A DNA stretch of 41,937 nt. Source: a virus. Numbering within the stretch: position 1 is the first letter of the stretch; every line of letters begins with the position of its first letter. The stretch lies in UHGV virus genome UHGV-0025826; one strand, 5' to 3'. Both the position numbers and the translations under genes were made by a program. Shown here in pieces: positions 23,625-35,215 of this stretch. The notes under the pieces were generated by a model, which had not been told where the DNA came from, made no database searches, and saw nothing but the letters and a program-made list of their open reading frames with translations.

Positions 23625-24677
23625 TTATTCCCCTGTTAACGCCCTTATTTCCTCCACCGTCTGGCTAAACCTGTCCTCCTCGAGTTCAACGCCGATAGCC
23701 TGGCGGCCAAGTTCCAGCGCGATTTTCACGGTCGAACCGGACCCCATAAAGAAATCAGCCACCACATCACCAGGCTTACTGCTGGCGTTGATGATCTGCC
23801 GCAACATGTCAGCGGGTTTTTCGCATGGGTGTTTACCTGGGTAAAACTGAACGGGTTTATGTGTCCAGACGTCGGTATAAGGAACGGATACGGAAACAGA
23901 GAAATGCCGCCGAAGCGATTTGTACTCTTCGAGCAGCTCTGAATACTTGCGATTTAACGAATGCCACATAGCCACCAGCTGGTGGTGTGGTGTTGCCAGT
24001 TCGCCGTTCTGGTGCTTTTCGATGGCTACCTGCGTGAAAAGGGACTGAAGATTCCGGTAGTCTAATTCATTCGGTAATTGCCACTGGCTACCGCTGAACC
24101 AGTGAGACACCATGTTCTTCTTTCCAGTCGCATCGGCTATTTGTTTTGAGGTTATGCCAAGCGCTTCACGTGCATCCCGGAAATAAGAAATTAGGGGAGT
24201 CATTACATGCTGCTTCAGCTCGCTTCCCTTCTCCGCGTAACCGTCGCTCTTTGGTTTATACGGCCCCTGGTAATGCTCAGCGAAGAGGATGCGCTCTGTT
24301 GCAGGGAAGTAAGAGCGCAGACTCTCTTTATTACAGCCATTCCAGCGGCCCGACGGTTTAGCCCAGATGATGTGGTTCAGGACGTTGAACCGCTCACGCA
24401 TCATGATCTCAATGTCTGCCGCCAGGCGGTGACCGGAGAAAAGATAAAGACTGCCAGCAGGTTTAAGCACTCGCCAGAATTGTGCGAGGCACATATCAAG
24501 CCAGCGAAGATAATCCTCATCCCCTTTCCACTGATTGTCCCAGCCGTTGGGTTTCACTTTGAAGTACGGCGGATCCGTGACTATCAGGTCAATGGAGTTA
24601 TCAGGGAGAGTGGCGATGTATTGCAGGCTATCAGCGTTGACTAACTCAACACTGTTTATATTTACAGTATTTTTCAT
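23625..24677 (-). CDS. DNA methyltransferase, beta-class (N6-adenine or N4-cytosine), no adjacent endonuclease recognised
   Basis: 350 aa; DPPY motif near the N-terminus (LIVTDPPYF) and FxGxG near the C-terminus (DFFMGSGST). Confidence 0.85.
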   Translation of the reverse strand: MKNTVNINSVELVNADSLQYIATLPDNSIDLIVTDPPYFKVKPNGWDNQWKGDEDYLRWLDMCLAQFWRVLKPAGSLYLFSGHRLAADIEIMMRERFNVLNHIIWAKPSGRWNGCNKESLRSYFPATERILFAEHYQGPYKPKSDGYAEKGSELKQHVMTPLISYFRDAREALGITSKQIADATGKKNMVSHWFSGSQWQLPNELDYRNLQSLFTQVAIEKHQNGELATPHHQLVAMWHSLNRKYSELLEEYKSLRRHFSVSVSVPYTDVWTHKPVQFYPGKHPCEKPADMLRQIINASSKPGDVVADFFMGSGSTVKIALELGRQAIGVELEEDRFSQTVEEIRALTGE

Positions 24678-28504: not shown

Positions 28505-29100
28505 CCCGCAAAGCTCATGAGCTGCGATGCAGCGTTTTCCGCTTCACGCTGGTCCTTGAATGCCCGGGACAATACCCAGCGCCACAGAACATCAAGCGCA
28601 GCTTTGTACAGCTGCTGGAACTCGGTTTCGTCCATGTTGGCGAAAGCTATGCTGCGGGGATGTTTGCGGAGGGTGCCGTCAGGCAGCTGAATGGCGTCGT
28701 AATGGCCGGACTCAATAGTGACCCATGCACGATATGCATCGAATGACTTACAGGCGCAGATGCTACCAGTACGCTTATCGGCGATGCGGTCCAGATATTG
28801 CTCAGCAGCATCCAGGAGTGCTGCTTCACTTCCCGCGAATGAGGCAAGGAACTTGGCATAGCCGGTTACCAGCTTGCGTTCGTTGGAGGAGATTGCCCCG
28901 CCGGTGGGTTCCCAGTATTCGAAACCGAGATTGAGTAACGCGAAGAAACGACGGTGAAAGGCCGGGTTGCGTACCTGCCGGAACTCAGCCACCAGTACGG
29001 AGCCGAGTTTGATTTTTGATTGCAGTAAATCACTGGTCTCCGGCGTAGCGGGGATCAGGATTCCTGAGGAATGCTTGATGAGTTGTAGTTCGTGCGCCAT
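28501..29100 (-). CDS. Hypothetical nin-region protein (possibly DUF1367-like)
   Basis: 199 aa; family name is a weak recollection. Confidence 0.35.
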   Translation of the reverse strand: MAHELQLIKHSSGILIPATPETSDLLQSKIKLGSVLVAEFRQVRNPAFHRRFFALLNLGFEYWEPTGGAISSNERKLVTGYAKFLASFAGSEAALLDAAEQYLDRIADKRTGSICACKSFDAYRAWVTIESGHYDAIQLPDGTLRKHPRSIAFANMDETEFQQLYKAALDVLWRWVLSRAFKDQREAENAASQLMSFAG

Positions 29101-29134
29101 GGTTTCTCTCCGTGGCGCAGTAGGTTACGGTTGT

Positions 29135-29383
29135 TCAGACCGTTGATTTCATATTATCAGAAGGTGGGGTTACCCGGTAGCCGAGACGGTGAATAAACTG
29201 CATAAAACCATTAGGAGTAAAGACCTCTTCATCATCCAGCAAAGGCCGCATAGAAACCATGCCATTGACGCGATAAATTAGATGCCTGCCCGATGAAGGA
29301 AAGCTAAACACCACGCAGCCGTCAGACCTTCTTACAATGTCATACCAGTTGTCTTCTGACGTTTGCAAAGCTGAATCACTCAC
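29135..29383 (-). CDS. Hypothetical 82-aa protein downstream of the DinI-like gene; candidate antirepressor
   Basis: GTG start with GGGAGAA 7 nt upstream; first gene after the LexA-box-controlled DinI-like gene. Confidence 0.4.
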   Translation of the reverse strand: MSDSALQTSEDNWYDIVRRSDGCVVFSFPSSGRHLIYRVNGMVSMRPLLDDEEVFTPNGFMQFIHRLGYRVTPPSDNMKSTV

Positions 29384-29500
29384 ATTTATGTTCTCCCTTC
29401 GAGCGACTAACAGACGCGATTAAAGATTGTCGGCAGCTGCATCAGAGGGTTACGCAAATTGCGGTATTCTGAAAAATGCGCGCCAGCCTTAAGCGCAATT

Positions 29501-29734
29501 CTAATAAAACCAGTCGTCAGCGCTTTCCCAGGTATCCTGGAGGATTGATTCAATTTTCTTTTTATCGTCCTTGTCACCACCAAAAACACTTAACCCATCG
29601 GCCCCGGCACGGCGGATTGTGAGCCTGCAATTGTCATAGTGATCATTCAGGCGCTTAAGCAGTTCTTTCTCCAGTGCTGGTACTGCGCCTTTAGGAAGTT
29701 CTTTCATGCGATCAATGGTTAATTCAACTTTCAT
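29501..29734 (-). CDS. dinI: DinI-like protein (DNA-damage-inducible protein I family)
   Basis: MKVELTIDR...LSVFGGDKDDKKKIESILQDTWESADDWFY aligns along its length with recalled E. coli DinI (...LSVIGATKEDKQRISEILQETWESADDWF); start set to ATG at 29734 with GGGGG upstream. Confidence 0.8.
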   Translation of the reverse strand: MKVELTIDRMKELPKGAVPALEKELLKRLNDHYDNCRLTIRRAGADGLSVFGGDKDDKKKIESILQDTWESADDWFY

Positions 29735-29752
29735 AATGGCCCCCATTGCATT

Positions 29753-29772
29753 TACTGTTTTTTTATACAGTA
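29753..29772. promoter_or_regulatory. LexA (SOS) box overlapping the DinI-like promoter
   Basis: TACTGTTTTTTTATACAGTA is a perfect CTGT-N8-ACAG palindrome 19 nt upstream of the ATG; candidate minus-strand -10 TATACT (29769-29774) and -35 TTGATC overlap it. Confidence 0.6.
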
Positions 29773-32388: not shown

Positions 32389-32946
32389 TCATAGCGCACC
32401 ACCCAGCATCGTTGTAACCATCGCCATAATGGGCGCCACAGAATCAGGTCCGTCCAGGTAGAGCTTGGCTACGATGCTCTCGCTGATTTCCTTCATCCGT
32501 TCGTGTCTGGGGGCTTTGAGGACGACAGCCTGTATCGCCTCAGCGTCTTCTTTCACCGACCTGGCGACACGAACCGCAAAGCAGTCGTGCTTAATCACGC
32601 GATCCCGGTACGCCAGCGGCAGAACCGAAATTATTACCGGCGCCAGCTGCTCGACGTTCGCCCGGTAGGCCGGTGATTTCTCGTGGTTGTCCAGCCAGCG
32701 AAACAGCTTCACGTTCCACACATCGGCGCTGCCGGTCATGTCAATGCTGTCAAGCTCGGCCTGTTCGGCAGCCTCTTTAATCGCCAGAGCGACCGCCACG
32801 CGACCCTCTGCCGCCGCCCAGGCGCGGACGGCAGAACAGATAGCCCGGTGATCGATCGGCTGGCCTTCAGCCTCACTGTGTTGATACTGGAATTTCAGGT
32901 GCTCTGATGGCGCTCTGTTATTCTGTTGAAAAGAAAGTGTTTGCAT
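32389..32946 (-). CDS. YdaT/CII-like regulatory protein
   Basis: 185 aa; first gene after the cro-like gene; NVKLFRWLDNHEKSPAYRANVEQLAPVIISVLPLAYRDRV resembles recalled Rac YdaT. Confidence 0.45.
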   Translation of the reverse strand: MQTLSFQQNNRAPSEHLKFQYQHSEAEGQPIDHRAICSAVRAWAAAEGRVAVALAIKEAAEQAELDSIDMTGSADVWNVKLFRWLDNHEKSPAYRANVEQLAPVIISVLPLAYRDRVIKHDCFAVRVARSVKEDAEAIQAVVLKAPRHERMKEISESIVAKLYLDGPDSVAPIMAMVTTMLGGAL

Positions 32947-32957
32947 TGTCAGTGCTC

Positions 32958-33176
32958 CTACTTTGGTAATCCGTCAGTGGGATTTGGATAGAGATCAGGG
33001 CGCAGCTCGTGGGGGGTTACGCCTGTCATTTTGAAAATCGGGAAGATATAGCTTGGCGGGACGATCCCTTGGTCACGATTCTTCCAATGACTTACAGACA
33101 TACTCGTCACACCAAGCGCGATGCTGAGCTTTCTGGCAGAGCCAGCGGCTTTAATTGCTTTATCGAGTGCGGACAT
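32958..33176 (-). CDS. Cro-like HTH regulator (YdaS/Cro family)
   Basis: 72 aa; HTH ARKLSIALGVTSMSVSHW and ELRPDLY motif; divergent from the repressor; AGGAGAA RBS. Confidence 0.65.
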   Translation of the reverse strand: MSALDKAIKAAGSARKLSIALGVTSMSVSHWKNRDQGIVPPSYIFPIFKMTGVTPHELRPDLYPNPTDGLPK

Positions 33177-33278
33177 GTGCTTCTCCTGCTTATTGATAGC
33201 AGAAGTAAACCACAGATTTATACTTCATGCAAACTTTGGATTTATTGCGTGCATAAACCAAATATTTACAATGACCAT
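33177..33278. promoter_or_regulatory. Divergent immunity promoter/operator region
   Basis: Inverted repeat CTGCT-N7-AGCAG at 33186-33202; recurring gcaWaaac-like half-sites; plus-strand -35 TTGCGT (33245-33250) and -10 TACAAT (33267-33272) ending 6 nt before the repressor ATG. Confidence 0.45.
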
Positions 33279-33668
33279 ATGAGAAAAGAAGAACCCAACC
33301 TCGTTCTGGTGGAGCGCCTTACTGAGATCACTGATCGCGGCGTTACCAAAGCAGACATGGCAAGAATAGCTGGAGTCACCCCTCAGGCCGTAAACGGCTG
33401 GTTCAAAAAAGGCGTGATTAGTAAGAAATCGGCACTGGCCATAGCCGACGCTGTTGGTATTTCTGTCGCCTGGCTACTCGGTGAAGACGTTGGGGAGAAA
33501 GACGGTCTCAAACCGGACGAACAGCGTTTGCTCGAGCTCTACCGCCAGTTACCGGAAGAAGAGCAGCAGAACATGCTCCGCATTTTTGCGCTTCGCCTGA
33601 AAGAGTTAGATGAGCTGTACGAGAAGTACATGAAGGGTCGGATTCGATCGCAAGGTGAGCAAACCTAA
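33279..33668 (+). CDS. Prophage repressor (XRE-family HTH, no LexA-like peptidase domain)
   Basis: 129 aa from ATG at 33279; HTH ITDRGVTKADMARIAGVTPQAVNGWFKKG; C-terminal coiled-coil-like segment; divergent from cro-like gene. Confidence 0.65.
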   Translation: MRKEEPNLVLVERLTEITDRGVTKADMARIAGVTPQAVNGWFKKGVISKKSALAIADAVGISVAWLLGEDVGEKDGLKPDEQRLLELYRQLPEEEQQNMLRIFALRLKELDELYEKYMKGRIRSQGEQT

Positions 33669-33732
33669 ACCAGTAGTATCTAATTCCATGTAATAAAAAT
33701 ATTTCAAGATTTAATATCTTCTGGAGGATTCG

Positions 33733-34014
33733 GTGTCTAAAGAAACAACCGTCGAACTTATGCATCTTAATGATGTAATCGAAGCGAAAAATTTCATCGA
33801 GACCAATGCTGACGGTGTCGTAACAATCGGCACACAAAATGCCGGTTACGAAGTTTACAATTTTGTGTTCCTGAATAGCAGCCCGATCATCGGTACGGAT
33901 AATGCGGATATAGTCGTCAAGGGCATGCAGCGAACCAAAGTTGTGTCTGTGACTTTAAGCAAACAAAAGGCTTATGATTTTTATCAATCCTTAAAAAGTA
34001 TGTTTGAGGAATAA
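33733..34014 (+). CDS. Hypothetical 93-aa protein, cassette B gene 1 (rexA/sieB position)
   Basis: GTG start with GGAGGA upstream; directly downstream of and co-oriented with the repressor; looks AT-rich by eye. Confidence 0.5.
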   Translation: MSKETTVELMHLNDVIEAKNFIETNADGVVTIGTQNAGYEVYNFVFLNSSPIIGTDNADIVVKGMQRTKVVSVTLSKQKAYDFYQSLKSMFEE

Positions 34015-34542: not shown

Positions 34543-34616
34543 TCAGATTTGGTCAATACGCCTGAGTTATAAGGCTCTCAGCTACTAACTCTGTCGCCTT
34601 CCCCGAACCTTCTCAT

Positions 34617-34642
34617 CCCGACCACGCGTCGGGATTTTTTTT
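34617..34642 (+). terminator. Rho-independent terminator closing the repressor/cassette B transcript
   Basis: cccgac-cacgc-gtcggg stem-loop followed by T8. Confidence 0.65.
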
Positions 34643-34716
34643 GCCTGCGATTCTGCAGACGTGTCACAAAACCCAGCCACATAAACCTCAGATTTACAAT
34701 TAATACCAACCCTAAG

Positions 34717-34745
34717 TTGACATATATATAAACCAGTGATTTAAT
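34717..34745 (+). promoter_or_regulatory. Candidate early-left (PL-like) promoter
   Basis: TTGACA (34717-34722), 17-nt spacer, TTTAAT (34740-34745), just downstream of the terminator. Confidence 0.4.
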
Positions 34746-34997
34746 CTAACTCACCAAGACGCACCACGAACCACCCAAGCATGGAGCCCACGAAGTAGCC
34801 GTCCGGGGCATACGAAAACCGGAATGAGGTGGTGATATTAACGCGCAGTAGGTTTGAAACGTTCCGCCAGCCTGGCGACAAGGGCAAACACAGAAGTGAG
34901 CTTCGCGGTGGTGAATTGCAGAGTTAAAACGCTCAACTGTGAAGATCAGCGTCACGGCACCACCAGCGAAGTTCACTCAGCAATAGTGGAGAACATC

Positions 34998-35204
34998 ATG
35001 GTTCATCAGCACTACGGTACACAGACAGTAAACCGCGGCGCAGTTCAGCCGGGGATGCTTGTAAAACACAAAGACTCAACCTGGACGGCATCAGCTAACG
35101 CTCGCGGACGTTTGTATCTGCATCGCGGCGTAGAAATGACTTACACCAAGGATTTGCTGGTTGAAGTTTATCTGAACGGTCTGGGGCATGGACTCAGCCA
35201 CTAG
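34998..35204 (+). CDS. Hypothetical early protein (68 aa)
   Basis: ATG at 34998 with GGAGAA upstream; the longer frame from 34854 begins with TTG and has no RBS. Confidence 0.3.
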   Translation: MVHQHYGTQTVNRGAVQPGMLVKHKDSTWTASANARGRLYLHRGVEMTYTKDLLVEVYLNGLGHGLSH

Positions 35205-35215
35205 CGGAGGATGTC

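Follow-up and report, generated by a model that had tools for sequence, protein, structure and literature searches.

A probable lambda-like right operator with a predicted leaderless repressor mRNA in a Gifsy-like prophage

The repressor gene discussed here appears to have no ribosome binding site, and what looks like a promoter ends almost directly on its start codon. How, then, would this gene be transcribed and translated, and what else lies in the short stretch between it and its divergent neighbour? The locus sits in a viral genome of 41,937 nucleotides, here called the window. We put the probability at about 85% that positions 33177-33278 form the right operator of a lambdoid, Gifsy-like E. 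coli prophage, in which a PRM-type promoter gives a leaderless repressor mRNA.

The repressor gene encodes 129 amino acids and occupies 33279..33668 on the forward strand, with its ATG at 33279..33281. On the same strand, TACAAT (33267..33272, five of six positions matching the -10 consensus) is preceded by TTGCGT (33245..33250, three of six for the -35), with a spacer of 16 nucleotides. The -10 ends six nucleotides before the ATG, the gap being GACCAT. This makes the A of the ATG the seventh nucleotide after the -10, and it is preceded by a pyrimidine, T; it is the predicted transcription start. An earlier sequence-only reading had proposed exactly this arrangement, TTGCGT-16 nt-TACAAT-6 nt-ATG, and every element is where that reading placed it.

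A generic promoter scan of 32800-33800 reported no promoter. The scan is silent on this pair because it scores 8/12 and the threshold is 9/12. The promoter on the cro side likewise stays under this threshold, and comparative analysis was therefore used instead. Counting the pattern TTGnnn, 16 to 18 nucleotides, and a -10 with five of six matches gives one occurrence in the region and, with both strands counted, only nine across the 42-kb window. The pattern arises in 9% of shuffles of the region, so by itself it is only suggestive.

It is conservation that makes the predicted promoter convincing. A -10 hexamer with five of six matches ends exactly six nucleotides upstream of the start codon in the window, at the PaaR2 locus and in 25 of 28 homologous loci, which span more than 15 genera. 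Such hexamers account for just 0.6% of positions in these intergenic regions. The sequence of the gap itself is unconstrained and varies freely among homologues, while its exact length is kept across immunity groups with different operator words. Of the -35 only the TTG is conserved, without exception across 14 related intergenic regions. The architecture does not hold everywhere, since one homologue (L028) has its best -10 some 30 nucleotides upstream, together with a Shine-Dalgarno-like AGAAGAG.

The absence of a Shine-Dalgarno sequence, also part of the earlier reading, was borne out. The anti-Shine-Dalgarno duplex energy, computed for the 20 nucleotides preceding the ATG, is +0.7 kcal/mol, whereas the divergent cro-like gene reaches -7.4 and six of the seven neighbouring genes checked reach -6.0 to -9.3. 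The seventh value, for the replication O open reading frame at its upstream GTG, is -1.7. Among the repressor homologues the value is never below -3.7. Efficient leaderless initiation requires an AUG start codon, and every one of the 28 homologous loci, like the window, has ATG at the repressor start.

That start is not the only one that annotation gives. PGAP, in genomes identical here, calls an in-frame GTG at 33249..33251 (forward strand), which yields a protein of 139 amino acids, and many database entries of this repressor family are 137-139 amino acids long. Some relatives (L003, L009) have an ATG at the equivalent position. If this were the real start, the mRNA would carry a leader from farther upstream and TACAAT would be mere coding sequence. 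The ten codons from 33249 to 33278 speak against this, as they show neither codon periodicity nor a conserved peptide. By codon position, variable columns number 27/9/98 in the repressor coding sequence versus 4/4/3 in the 30 nucleotides upstream of the ATG, which means that these 30 nucleotides evolve as non-coding. There is an in-frame stop in this stretch in L010 and in the GfoR group; in eight homologues (L010 and L016-L022) it is the -10 itself, TAGAAT, that supplies a stop upstream of the ATG. Five further loci (L023-L027) lack a start codon there. The Shine-Dalgarno match at the GTG is weak (-3.1), and ATG 33279 is the start given in the PHB10 record and, by PGAP itself, in AR_0118.

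The GTG corresponds to the upstream AUG of the long form of gfhR in prophage Gifsy-3, where two in-frame AUGs flank the primary promoter (PMC3121763). There the short form is the normal product, and the long form, GfhR*, is made from an upstream promoter after mitomycin C (PMC3121763). On these sequence tests, with the short form of gfhR as experimental support, ATG 33279 comes out as the true translation start. GTG 33249 is probably not the main start, and a repressor made chiefly as the 139-residue protein is quite improbable.

The region as a whole was also read as containing divergent immunity promoters, and the elements found support this. On the reverse strand, a PR-type promoter can be read from the sequence, with TTGCAT (33227..33232, its CAA invariant) as the -35 and TTTACT (33204..33209) as the likely -10, separated by 17 nucleotides. 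Other immunity groups have TTGACA or TTGACT at this -35 position. Two alternative -10 candidates, TATAAA (33222..33217) and TATCAA, were discarded, as both lack a -35 and conservation. Transcription is predicted to start near 33197, ahead of the Shine-Dalgarno sequence AGGAG (33181..33185, reverse strand) that underlies the strong duplex of the cro-like gene; its complement CTCCT is invariant. Downstream on this strand are a Cro analogue, a 72-residue YdaS-family HTH protein (32958..33176; Pfam YdaS_toxin, E 1.4e-13; phrog_35), and a CII analogue, a 185-residue YdaT-family protein (32389..32946; Pfam YdaT_toxin, E 1.5e-17). The latter also matches phrog_163, a CII-like activator, at E 5.7e-41; a sequence search with it against the PDB gave no match.

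Which sequence in this region would the repressor bind? The inverted repeat CTGCT-N7-AGCAG (33186..33202, with CTGCT at 33186-33190 and AGCAG at 33198-33202) had been put forward as a candidate operator, lying over the cro-side promoter and ribosome binding site. The repeat exists, and it does lie between the cro-side promoter and the ribosome binding site. It is off the promoter hexamers, however: it is downstream of the predicted -10, between the predicted start and the Shine-Dalgarno sequence, which places it around the start and in the 5' UTR predicted for the cro-like mRNA. Two perfect inverted repeats with 5-bp arms and loops of 3-10 nucleotides are observed here versus 1.1 expected, which is chance level (P=0.30), and a repeat search with 6-nucleotide seeds found no inverted repeat at 33186-33202. 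Five of eight close relatives (PHB10, 210205630, Atlantibacter, Enterobacter and MGYG110) have it broken, with the flanking elements invariant, and more distant relatives that keep the same repressor recognition helix lack it. The stretch is the least conserved part of the intergenic region, and no second copy was found at OL. There is next to no chance that the repressor or the Cro analogue uses this repeat as an operator.

Far better candidates are three 15-bp dyads of the form TAAACC-N3-GATTTA, which are likely the operators OR1, OR2 and OR3. Their centres, at 33213, 33237 and 33261, are 24 bp apart, and the sites are conserved in 14 sequences. Putative OR1 (TAAACCACAGATTTA, 33206..33220, 21.3 bits) is centred at -66 from the repressor ATG and covers the PR spacer plus the first four nucleotides of the PR -10. 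Putative OR3 (TAAACCAAATATTTA, 33254..33268, 17.8 bits) is centred at -18 and covers the PRM spacer plus the first two nucleotides of the PRM -10. Exactly midway lies putative OR2 (CAAACTTTGGATTTA, 33230..33244), a weak site centred at -42 that overlaps the PR -35 and directly adjoins the PRM -35. It scores 8.8 bits with the position weight matrix, which ranks it 14th among about 42,000 positions. Its pattern CAAA..N..ATTTA is kept in 14 sequences, and its counterpart scores 12-13 bits in three loci (L003, L010, L027).

A search of the window with the 15-mer finds four sites with at most one mismatch, at two intergenic loci; at up to two mismatches there are 10 matches versus 2.9 expected. The second locus, OL, lies beyond the repressor operon, and relatives are arranged likewise. 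It has a putative distal site (TAAACCTCAGATTTA, 34682..34696, 21.2 bits) and a putative proximal one (TAAACCAGTGATTTA, 34729..34743, 21.3 bits). The cluster, 34682-34745, overlaps a candidate PL-type promoter on the forward strand, read from the sequence as TTGACA-17 nt-TTTAAT (34717..34745), and the proximal site falls within its spacer and -10. The scan missed this candidate because its -10 has no A at position 2. Its geometry matches that of PR, and the operator has the same position relative to it as at PR. Only two clear OL sites are present in the window, with no clear middle one. Equivalent site clusters are found in PHB10, L007, L023, L024 and L025, and OL clusters with a spacing of 23-24 or 47-48 bp recur in relatives. 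TACAAT also follows the distal OL site, with no -35 and no ATG there. Immunity groups that differ in the operator word also differ in the HTH sequences of their repressors and Cro analogues.

There is another reading of the repressor transcript. ATG 33279 could be the start codon of an mRNA that is mostly leadered, made from a YdaT-activated PRE-type promoter or from promoters of the PracR1/2 type and initiated without a Shine-Dalgarno sequence on an A-rich, unstructured region, with TACAAT mainly serving as part of OR3. The occurrence of TACAAT at distal OL fits this, and the predicted fold leaves the first 11 coding nucleotides unpaired. Three start sites are reported for RacR, two of them at additional upstream promoters that give leadered transcripts (PMC9638921), and prophage CP-933P possesses a YdaT-activated PRE. 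Yet the leaderless PracR3 is the strongest of the RacR promoters and essential for racR promoter strength (PMC9638921), and the primary gfhR promoter lies within the 30 nucleotides before its AUG (PMC3121763). The exact six-nucleotide spacing, moreover, is retained in immunity groups whose operators differ. The window shows no enrichment of the CP-933P YdaT box, TTGATT-N6-AATCAA, and has no copy of it near ydaS and ydaT, so no PRE-type promoter can be assigned; around 32900-33000 there is neither box enrichment nor a PRE candidate. A mostly leadered mRNA is thus unlikely.

Leaderless transcripts have been shown experimentally in related prophages. The start site of paaR2 was mapped onto its AUG by 5' RACE, and N-terminal sequencing gave MQKKE (PMC8630535). 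The dicA and racR mRNAs are leaderless by dRNA-seq (PMC4681348) and primer extension (PMC9638921), and K-12 has only five leaderless mRNAs, among them those of dicA, racR and ymfK (PMC4681348). The proposal of a leaderless repressor mRNA thus has geometry, the missing Shine-Dalgarno sequence, conservation and relatives on its side, and the start site itself, at 33279 or within a nucleotide of it, is a prediction. On the sequence, the repressor transcript very probably begins on its own start codon. Given the upstream RacR promoters and GfhR* of Gifsy-3, leadered transcripts, or the use of GTG 33249, may occur as a minor or conditional route.

Such a route could be taken further. The start at 33249, a GTG here and an AUG in some relatives and in Gifsy-3, may act as a second start under certain conditions, used on leadered transcripts only, and these may come from an induction-activated or an establishment (PRE-type) promoter. 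The leaderless short form may then serve maintenance, and a GfhR*-like form with ten more residues induction or establishment. If true, the long form would have a distinct regulatory role. More broadly, the fixed distance from -10 to AUG and the -18/-42/-66 frame, shared with lambda although proteins and sites are unrelated, could mean that leaderless initiation is obligatorily coupled to the occupancy of OR3. Taken jointly, two isoforms set by the promoter fired and this broader coupling are a speculative idea, and an unlikely one.

The preferred reading, a leaderless maintenance mRNA, suggests the following switch. Three 15-bp dyads 24 bp apart would be interleaved with two back-to-back sigma-70 promoters. 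PR (TTGCAT-17-TTTACT, reverse strand) would drive the cro-like ydaS, the CII-like ydaT and the replication genes, from an mRNA with a predicted leader of about 21 nucleotides and a strong Shine-Dalgarno sequence. PRM (TTGCGT-16-TACAAT, forward strand) would start at the A of ATG 33279 or within a nucleotide of it, which would leave the maintenance mRNA without a leader and without a Shine-Dalgarno sequence, to be translated as a leaderless mRNA like that of lambda cI. By analogy with lambda and CP-933P, repressor at OR1 and OR2 would shut PR, repressor at OR2, centred at -42 and adjoining the weak -35, would probably stimulate PRM, and OR3, once filled by excess repressor or by the Cro analogue, would shut PRM. 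From the lambda positions and the CP-933P data we infer that the repressor and the Cro analogue use the same sites with opposite preference. A second putative operator pair, at 34682-34745, would overlap a PL-type promoter.

The repressor consists of an HTH_3 domain and a C-terminal helical region. Pfam finds HTH families only, with no peptidase S24 or autocleavage domain. By sequence it belongs to the Gifsy (GfoR/GfhR)/DicA family: it is 91% identical to a Salmonella protein (P0082), 72-76% identical to loci whose N-terminus matches the gfoR primer, and 28% identical to DicA (E 5e-12). In a protein homologue search the best 120 matches listed are all at least 85% identical, and PaaR2, DicA and RacR are not among them; their sequences were taken from E. 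coli genomes for comparison. A PDB sequence search gave weak matches to the 434 repressor HTH and no PaaR2-like structure. Matches to polyubiquitin were discarded as spurious; they arise from GLKPDEQRLL summed over repeats. The repressor operon comprises the repressor and open reading frames of 93 and 174 amino acids, and it ends at an intrinsic terminator with an 8-bp stem and a T-run (34615..34644, forward strand). Rfam finds no known RNA family anywhere in the window.

The repressor carries no autocleavage domain. Induction would be expected to work through a LexA-controlled antirepressor, by analogy with the Gifsy prophages. A LexA box is present at 29753-29772 on the reverse strand, with three mismatches to the 20-mer consensus where none would be expected by chance. 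Directly downstream is a DinI homologue (29746..29501, reverse strand, E 4e-26), followed by an 82-residue open reading frame (29383..29135, reverse strand). This frame is called antirepressor-like on its position and its N-terminus alone, where MSDSALQ resembles the MSNSALQ encoded by the gfoA primer. The operon at 29135-29772 is likely the induction module acting on the repressor.

Relatives already show leaderless repressor mRNAs, so the finding is correct but ordinary, and nothing here will surprise a phage specialist. It adds one more well-resolved example of a lambdoid maintenance repressor read leaderless from a PRM-type promoter inside a tripartite operator, a pattern that includes the small non-cleavable Gifsy/DicA/RacR/PaaR2 class. 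There is some practical use. Automated annotation mis-calls the start, and the same gene is given as 127, 137, 139 or 161 amino acids; a rule of [quoted passage not shown] would correct start calls in this family. The putative operator word TAAACC-N3-GATTTA would define the immunity specificity of this prophage group, and with it one could predict which prophages of E. coli, Salmonella, Klebsiella and Enterobacter are homoimmune.

The likeness to lambda is close in layout. Lambda OR has divergent PRM and PR promoters in 100 bp, versus 102 bp (33177-33278) here; cI has TAGATT-6 nt-ATG with no Shine-Dalgarno sequence, the same distance from -10 to ATG; operator centres are at -19, -42 and -66 versus -18, -42 and -66; and both have a second operator cluster at PL, although just two clear OL sites are found here. 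The parts differ. The lambda sites are 17 bp long and unrelated in sequence to the 15-bp word, the repressor here has 129 residues and no S24 domain, and YdaS- and YdaT-family proteins replace Cro and CII. A lambda-identical operator frame built from unrelated parts makes this a clean case of conserved regulatory architecture.

CP-933P of E. coli O157:H7 (Jurenas et al. 2021, PMC8630535) has the same module of small HTH repressor, YdaS and YdaT. Its intergenic region is 97 bp, its GATAAT-6 nt-ATG geometry is like that of the window, and its OR and OL operators overlap promoters, as the putative sites do here. Protein identities are low (repressor 19%, YdaS 27%, YdaT 25%), the operator words are different (GTTTAGTAA-type repeats), and its repressor operon carries the paaA2-parE2 toxin-antitoxin where the window has two other open reading frames.

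The E. coli K-12 repressors DicA (Qin) and RacR (Rac) are homologues, each with a Cro analogue of the YdaS/DicC type as its partner, though RacR matches in the HTH only. The RacR operators have the same 6-N3-6 layout (PMC9638921), but the operator words of both differ from those in the window, RacR has its two extra upstream promoters, and the dicA and racR -10 elements at this six-nucleotide distance are poorer matches.

The closest family is Gifsy-3 GfhR and Gifsy-1 GfoR of Salmonella (Lemire et al. 2011, PMC3121763). The locus of the 91%-identical Salmonella homologue fits the gfhR description, with in-frame AUGs 30 nucleotides apart and parA adjoining; it reads exactly ATG-30 nt-ATG, and both OR3 and TACAAT fall between the two codons. 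Where Gifsy-3 has an upstream AUG the window has a GTG, and the accessory genes after the repressor differ, parA being absent from the window. Lemire et al. (PMC3121763) did not call the mRNA leaderless and did not define operators. The Gifsy prophages have a LexA-boxed dinI-antirepressor operon, and the window may have a similar one.

The intergenic region ahead of the repressor gene is the OR of a lambdoid, Gifsy-like prophage. What the analysis shows there are the elements, their spacing, the missing Shine-Dalgarno (SD) sequence, conservation and homology. Read from ATG 33279, the repressor ORF is 129 aa long (33279-33668) and carries an HTH_3 domain. On the minus strand lie a Cro-like gene of the YdaS family (72 aa, 33176..32958) and a CII-like gene of the YdaT family (185 aa, 32946..32389), after which come replication O- and P-like genes. 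A strong intrinsic terminator (34615-44) closes the repressor operon. The sequence matches prophage DNA in 13 complete E. coli chromosomes at 100% identity, in a 14th at 99.6%, and phage PHB10 at 87%.

The repressor-side promoter, PRM, reads TTGCGT (33245-33250), a 16-nt spacer, TACAAT (33267-33272), the 6-nt gap GACCAT and then ATG (33279-33281). Reading 32700-33800 confirmed every coordinate in the sequence-only reading, for these elements and for the arms of an inverted repeat discussed below. A generic promoter scan (cut-off 9/12) reported no promoter in this region, because each promoter scores under that threshold. Across the whole window there are only 9 instances of the pattern TTGnnn, 16 to 18 nt, then a 5/6 -10, and 9% of shuffled versions of the region contain it. 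The earlier observation that no SD precedes the ATG is borne out: the anti-SD duplex energy there is +0.7 kcal/mol. The cro-like gene has -7.4 kcal/mol, and six of seven neighbouring genes checked range from -6.0 to -9.3 kcal/mol. The seventh, the replication O ORF, comes to -1.7 kcal/mol, taken at its upstream GTG.

A homologue scan with one genome per species gave 25 good loci, 62-99% identical, in Atlantibacter, Citrobacter, Enterobacter, Klebsiella, Kluyvera, Leclercia, Pluralibacter, Phytobacter, Siccibacter and other genera. The window, 25 of 28 homologous loci and paaR2, the repressor gene of CP-933P, all have a hexamer that agrees with TATAAT at 5/6 positions (A2 and T6 included) and leaves exactly 6 nt to the ATG. 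Hexamers of this kind are found at only 0.6% of the positions in these intergenic regions. In locus L012 the hexamer 6 nt from the ATG is TATTCT (4/6); in L011 the same one stands 7 nt away. The only deviant is L028 (Phytobacter sp. V91; 1150-1210), where the best -10, TATGAT, is about 30 nt upstream, an SD-like AGAAGAG stands between it and the ATG, and the N-terminus is shortened; this suggests a secondarily leadered variant.

The homologous loci sort into four or more immunity groups. Operator words and HTH sequences differ between the groups, yet the -10-to-ATG spacing is fixed. The six bases in the gap vary freely (GACCAT, GTCGAT, GGTGAA, CCGTGC, CCTGTT, GGGTGT and so on). Of 14 aligned sequences, 13 have a pyrimidine just before the ATG, so that -1/+1 is the usual pyrimidine-purine pair. 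Lambda cI is laid out likewise, as TAGATT-TAACGT-ATG. Upstream promoters may also supply leadered repressor transcripts, as they do in Rac and Gifsy-3, but these would leave the fixed 6-nt geometry unexplained. Given that geometry, the absent SD and the data from relatives, the proposal of a leaderless repressor mRNA appears correct, and the resemblance to lambda PRM goes further than the sequence alone could reveal.

Within 33271-33282, the G after the -10 is invariant in 14/14 TAAACC-type relatives, while the next 5 nt vary freely. The invariant G creates a conserved mini-ORF of three codons, ATG-NNN-NNA-TGA, with a stop that overlaps the repressor ATG; this mini-ORF is absent from other immunity groups. 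The G may serve as a discriminator contact or an operator flank, or it may provide coupling on leadered transcripts.

Gene callers disagree on the length of the repressor because no SD anchors its start. Database entries (P0001-P0120) list the same gene as 127, 137, 139 or 161 aa, a disagreement typical of genes without an SD. In genomes identical to the window, PGAP starts at an in-frame upstream GTG (33249), giving 139 aa, and the anti-SD duplex energy before this GTG is -3.1 kcal/mol. ATG 33279 is the PGAP start in strain AR_0118 and the start in the PHB10 record. Among nine close relatives, variable columns at codon positions 1/2/3 number 27/9/98 in the CDS versus 4/4/3 in the 30 nt upstream. 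Locus L010 and the GfoR-type loci L016-L022 (GfoR being the Gifsy-1 repressor) have an in-frame stop upstream, the TAG of their -10 TAGAAT, and L023-L027 are without an upstream start codon. The published gfoR expression primer starts at the equivalent ATG and encodes MKEKTHQIN. Codon-position pattern, upstream stops, anti-SD energies and this primer together favour ATG 33279, and the 139-aa form is unlikely to be the main product.

A repeat search finds the dyad TAAACC-N3-GATTTA at the predicted operator sites OR1 (TAAACCACAGATTTA, 33206-20) and OR3 (TAAACCAAATATTTA, 33254-68), 48 bp apart. It recurs in the next intergenic region at 34682-96 and 34729-43, 47 bp apart, forming the second cluster, OL. 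With up to 2 mismatches there are 10 matches versus 2.9 expected, and none of the shuffles gave as many as 10. A PWM built from these four sites, which themselves score 17.8-21.3 bits, gives a weaker site, OR2 (CAAACTTTGGATTTA, 33230-44), at the exact midpoint between OR1 and OR3; its 8.8 bits place it 14th among about 42,000 positions. Measured from the A of the repressor ATG, the operator centres fall at -18, -42 and -66; in lambda the annotated OR3, OR2 and OR1 are at -19, -42 and -66 relative to the cI ATG.

Invariant throughout an alignment of 14 sequences are the three sites, the SD of the cro gene, the TTG of both -35 elements, TAnAATG and the ATG. Loci sharing the recognition helix GVTPQAVNGWFKKG keep TAAA(C/G)C-type sites. 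Other helices go with other words at the same positions: TAAAGC..ATTTAC, TAAACA-N3-TGTTTA and TAAGCC..GGCTTA. Relatives also have a second cluster downstream of the repressor operon, with a spacing of 23-24 bp (PHB10, L023) or 47-48 bp (L007, L024, L025).

The sequence-only reading had put forward a different candidate operator, the inverted repeat CTGCT-N7-AGCAG (arms 33186-33190 and 33198-33202). This is rejected: 5-bp inverted repeats are at chance level (2 observed versus 1.1 expected, P=0.30), and the stretch is among the least conserved in the alignment. The repeat search of the region did not pick it up.

Around the distal OL site, the stretch 34680-34699 copies OR3 plus flanks, including a -10-like TACAAT (CATAAACC..ATTTACAAT); this copy lacks both a -35 and a downstream ATG. 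A middle site cannot be made out in the OL of the window; PHB10 and L023 have tripartite OL clusters. An operator-like word of 10.1 bits, TAAACGGCTGGTTCA, lies inside the repressor gene (33391-33405) on the recognition-helix codons (AVNGWF), and is stronger, at 13-14 bits, in two relatives (L024 1310-1324, L025 1304-1318). RacR, the Rac repressor, is also reported to have sites within its own coding sequence. The word may be a coincidence of coding conservation.

The candidate cro-side promoter, PR, reads TTGCAT (33232..33227), 17 nt and TTTACT (33209..33204) on the minus strand. OR1 fills its spacer and provides the TTTA of its -10. Other immunity groups have TTGACA or TTGACT, 17 nt and TTTAAT or TTTACT in the same place. 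The predicted start near 33197 gives a leader of about 21 nt with AGGAG. At OL, the PL candidate (TTGACA 34717-22, 17 nt, TTTAAT 34740-45) faces the RecE-side genes, and relates to the proximal OL site as PR does to OR1. Between this candidate and the YdaE-like and RecE genes lie roughly 470 bp (34746-35215) in which no ORF with an SD is convincing and Rfam recognises no known RNA.

By analogy with lambda and CP-933P, repressor dimers at OR1 and OR2 would block PR, and OR2, at -42 and abutting the weak -35, would probably activate PRM. Occupation of OR3 by repressor or by the YdaS-type Cro analogue would block PRM. PRM transcription would start on the AUG, and the mRNA would be translated without a leader. 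In L020, an Enterobacter MAG, the YdaS-type gene loses its similarity beyond residue 44 and continues as an unrelated 93-aa tail, apparently through a frameshift; that copy of the prophage may be decaying.

The repressor lacks an S24 domain. Elsewhere in the window, a DinI homologue (29746..29501, minus strand, Pfam E 4e-26) has a LexA box (TACTGTTTTTTTATACAGTA, 29753-72) immediately ahead of it and is followed by an 82-aa ORF (29383..29135, minus strand, phrog_340). The N-terminus of this ORF, MSDSALQ, resembles the MSNSALQ of the Gifsy-1 antirepressor GfoA, read from a primer, and the gene order matches the dinI-antirepressor order described for Gifsy prophages. The stretch 29135-29772 is probably an SOS-controlled antirepressor operon that induces the prophage. 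Given these elements and the missing S24 domain, induction is expected by antirepression, not repressor cleavage.

A second strong LexA-box match (CACTGTTTATATTTACAGTA, 24650-24669) overlaps the start of a 350-aa ORF (24677..23625, minus strand) containing a DPPY methyltransferase motif; an SOS-regulated phage methylase, if true, would be unusual. The window's two best matches to the CP-933P YdaT box, TTGATTGCAGTAAATCAC (1 mismatch) and TTGATTTCATATTATCAG (2 mismatches), lie in 29016-29160, with an operator-like word of 12.9 bits at 29026-40. All of these are at the 5' end of a DUF1367 gene and just upstream of it, on the downstream side of the antirepressor-like ORF.

With DicA of Qin the repressor shares 28% identity (E 5e-12); it matches RacR only in the HTH, and has distant similarity to PaaR2 in the C-terminal LLxL(Y/F)xxLPExEQ region. 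For paaR2, 5' RACE places the start site on the AUG, and Edman sequencing gives MQKKE (PMC8630535). The leaderless promoter PracR3 is the strongest of three for racR (PMC9638921). A dRNA-seq survey of E. coli K-12 found only five leaderless mRNAs, three of them dicA, racR and ymfK (PMC4681348).

The closest experimental case is Gifsy-3. Its repressor gene gfhR has two functional in-frame AUGs with the primary promoter between them, and the longer GfhR* is made only after mitomycin C, from another, upstream promoter (Lemire et al., PMC3121763). That paper does not use the word "leaderless". The Salmonella protein P0082, found on >1000 contigs, is 91% identical to the window repressor. It adjoins parA, as gfhR does, and its DNA has ATG-30 nt-ATG with the OR3-type site TAAATCAAATATTTA and TACAAT between the two ATGs; from this we infer that P0082 is GfhR. 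GTG 33249 is the counterpart of the upstream AUG at the P0082 locus, and the 139-aa form could be a conditional, GfhR*-like isoform.

What is new here is local in scope: this immunity group's operator word and frame, plus the correction of the annotated start. Leaderless repressor mRNAs are already published for the same module class (PaaR2, RacR, DicA), and for the near-orthologue gfhR the promoter is already mapped to the 30 nt before the AUG.
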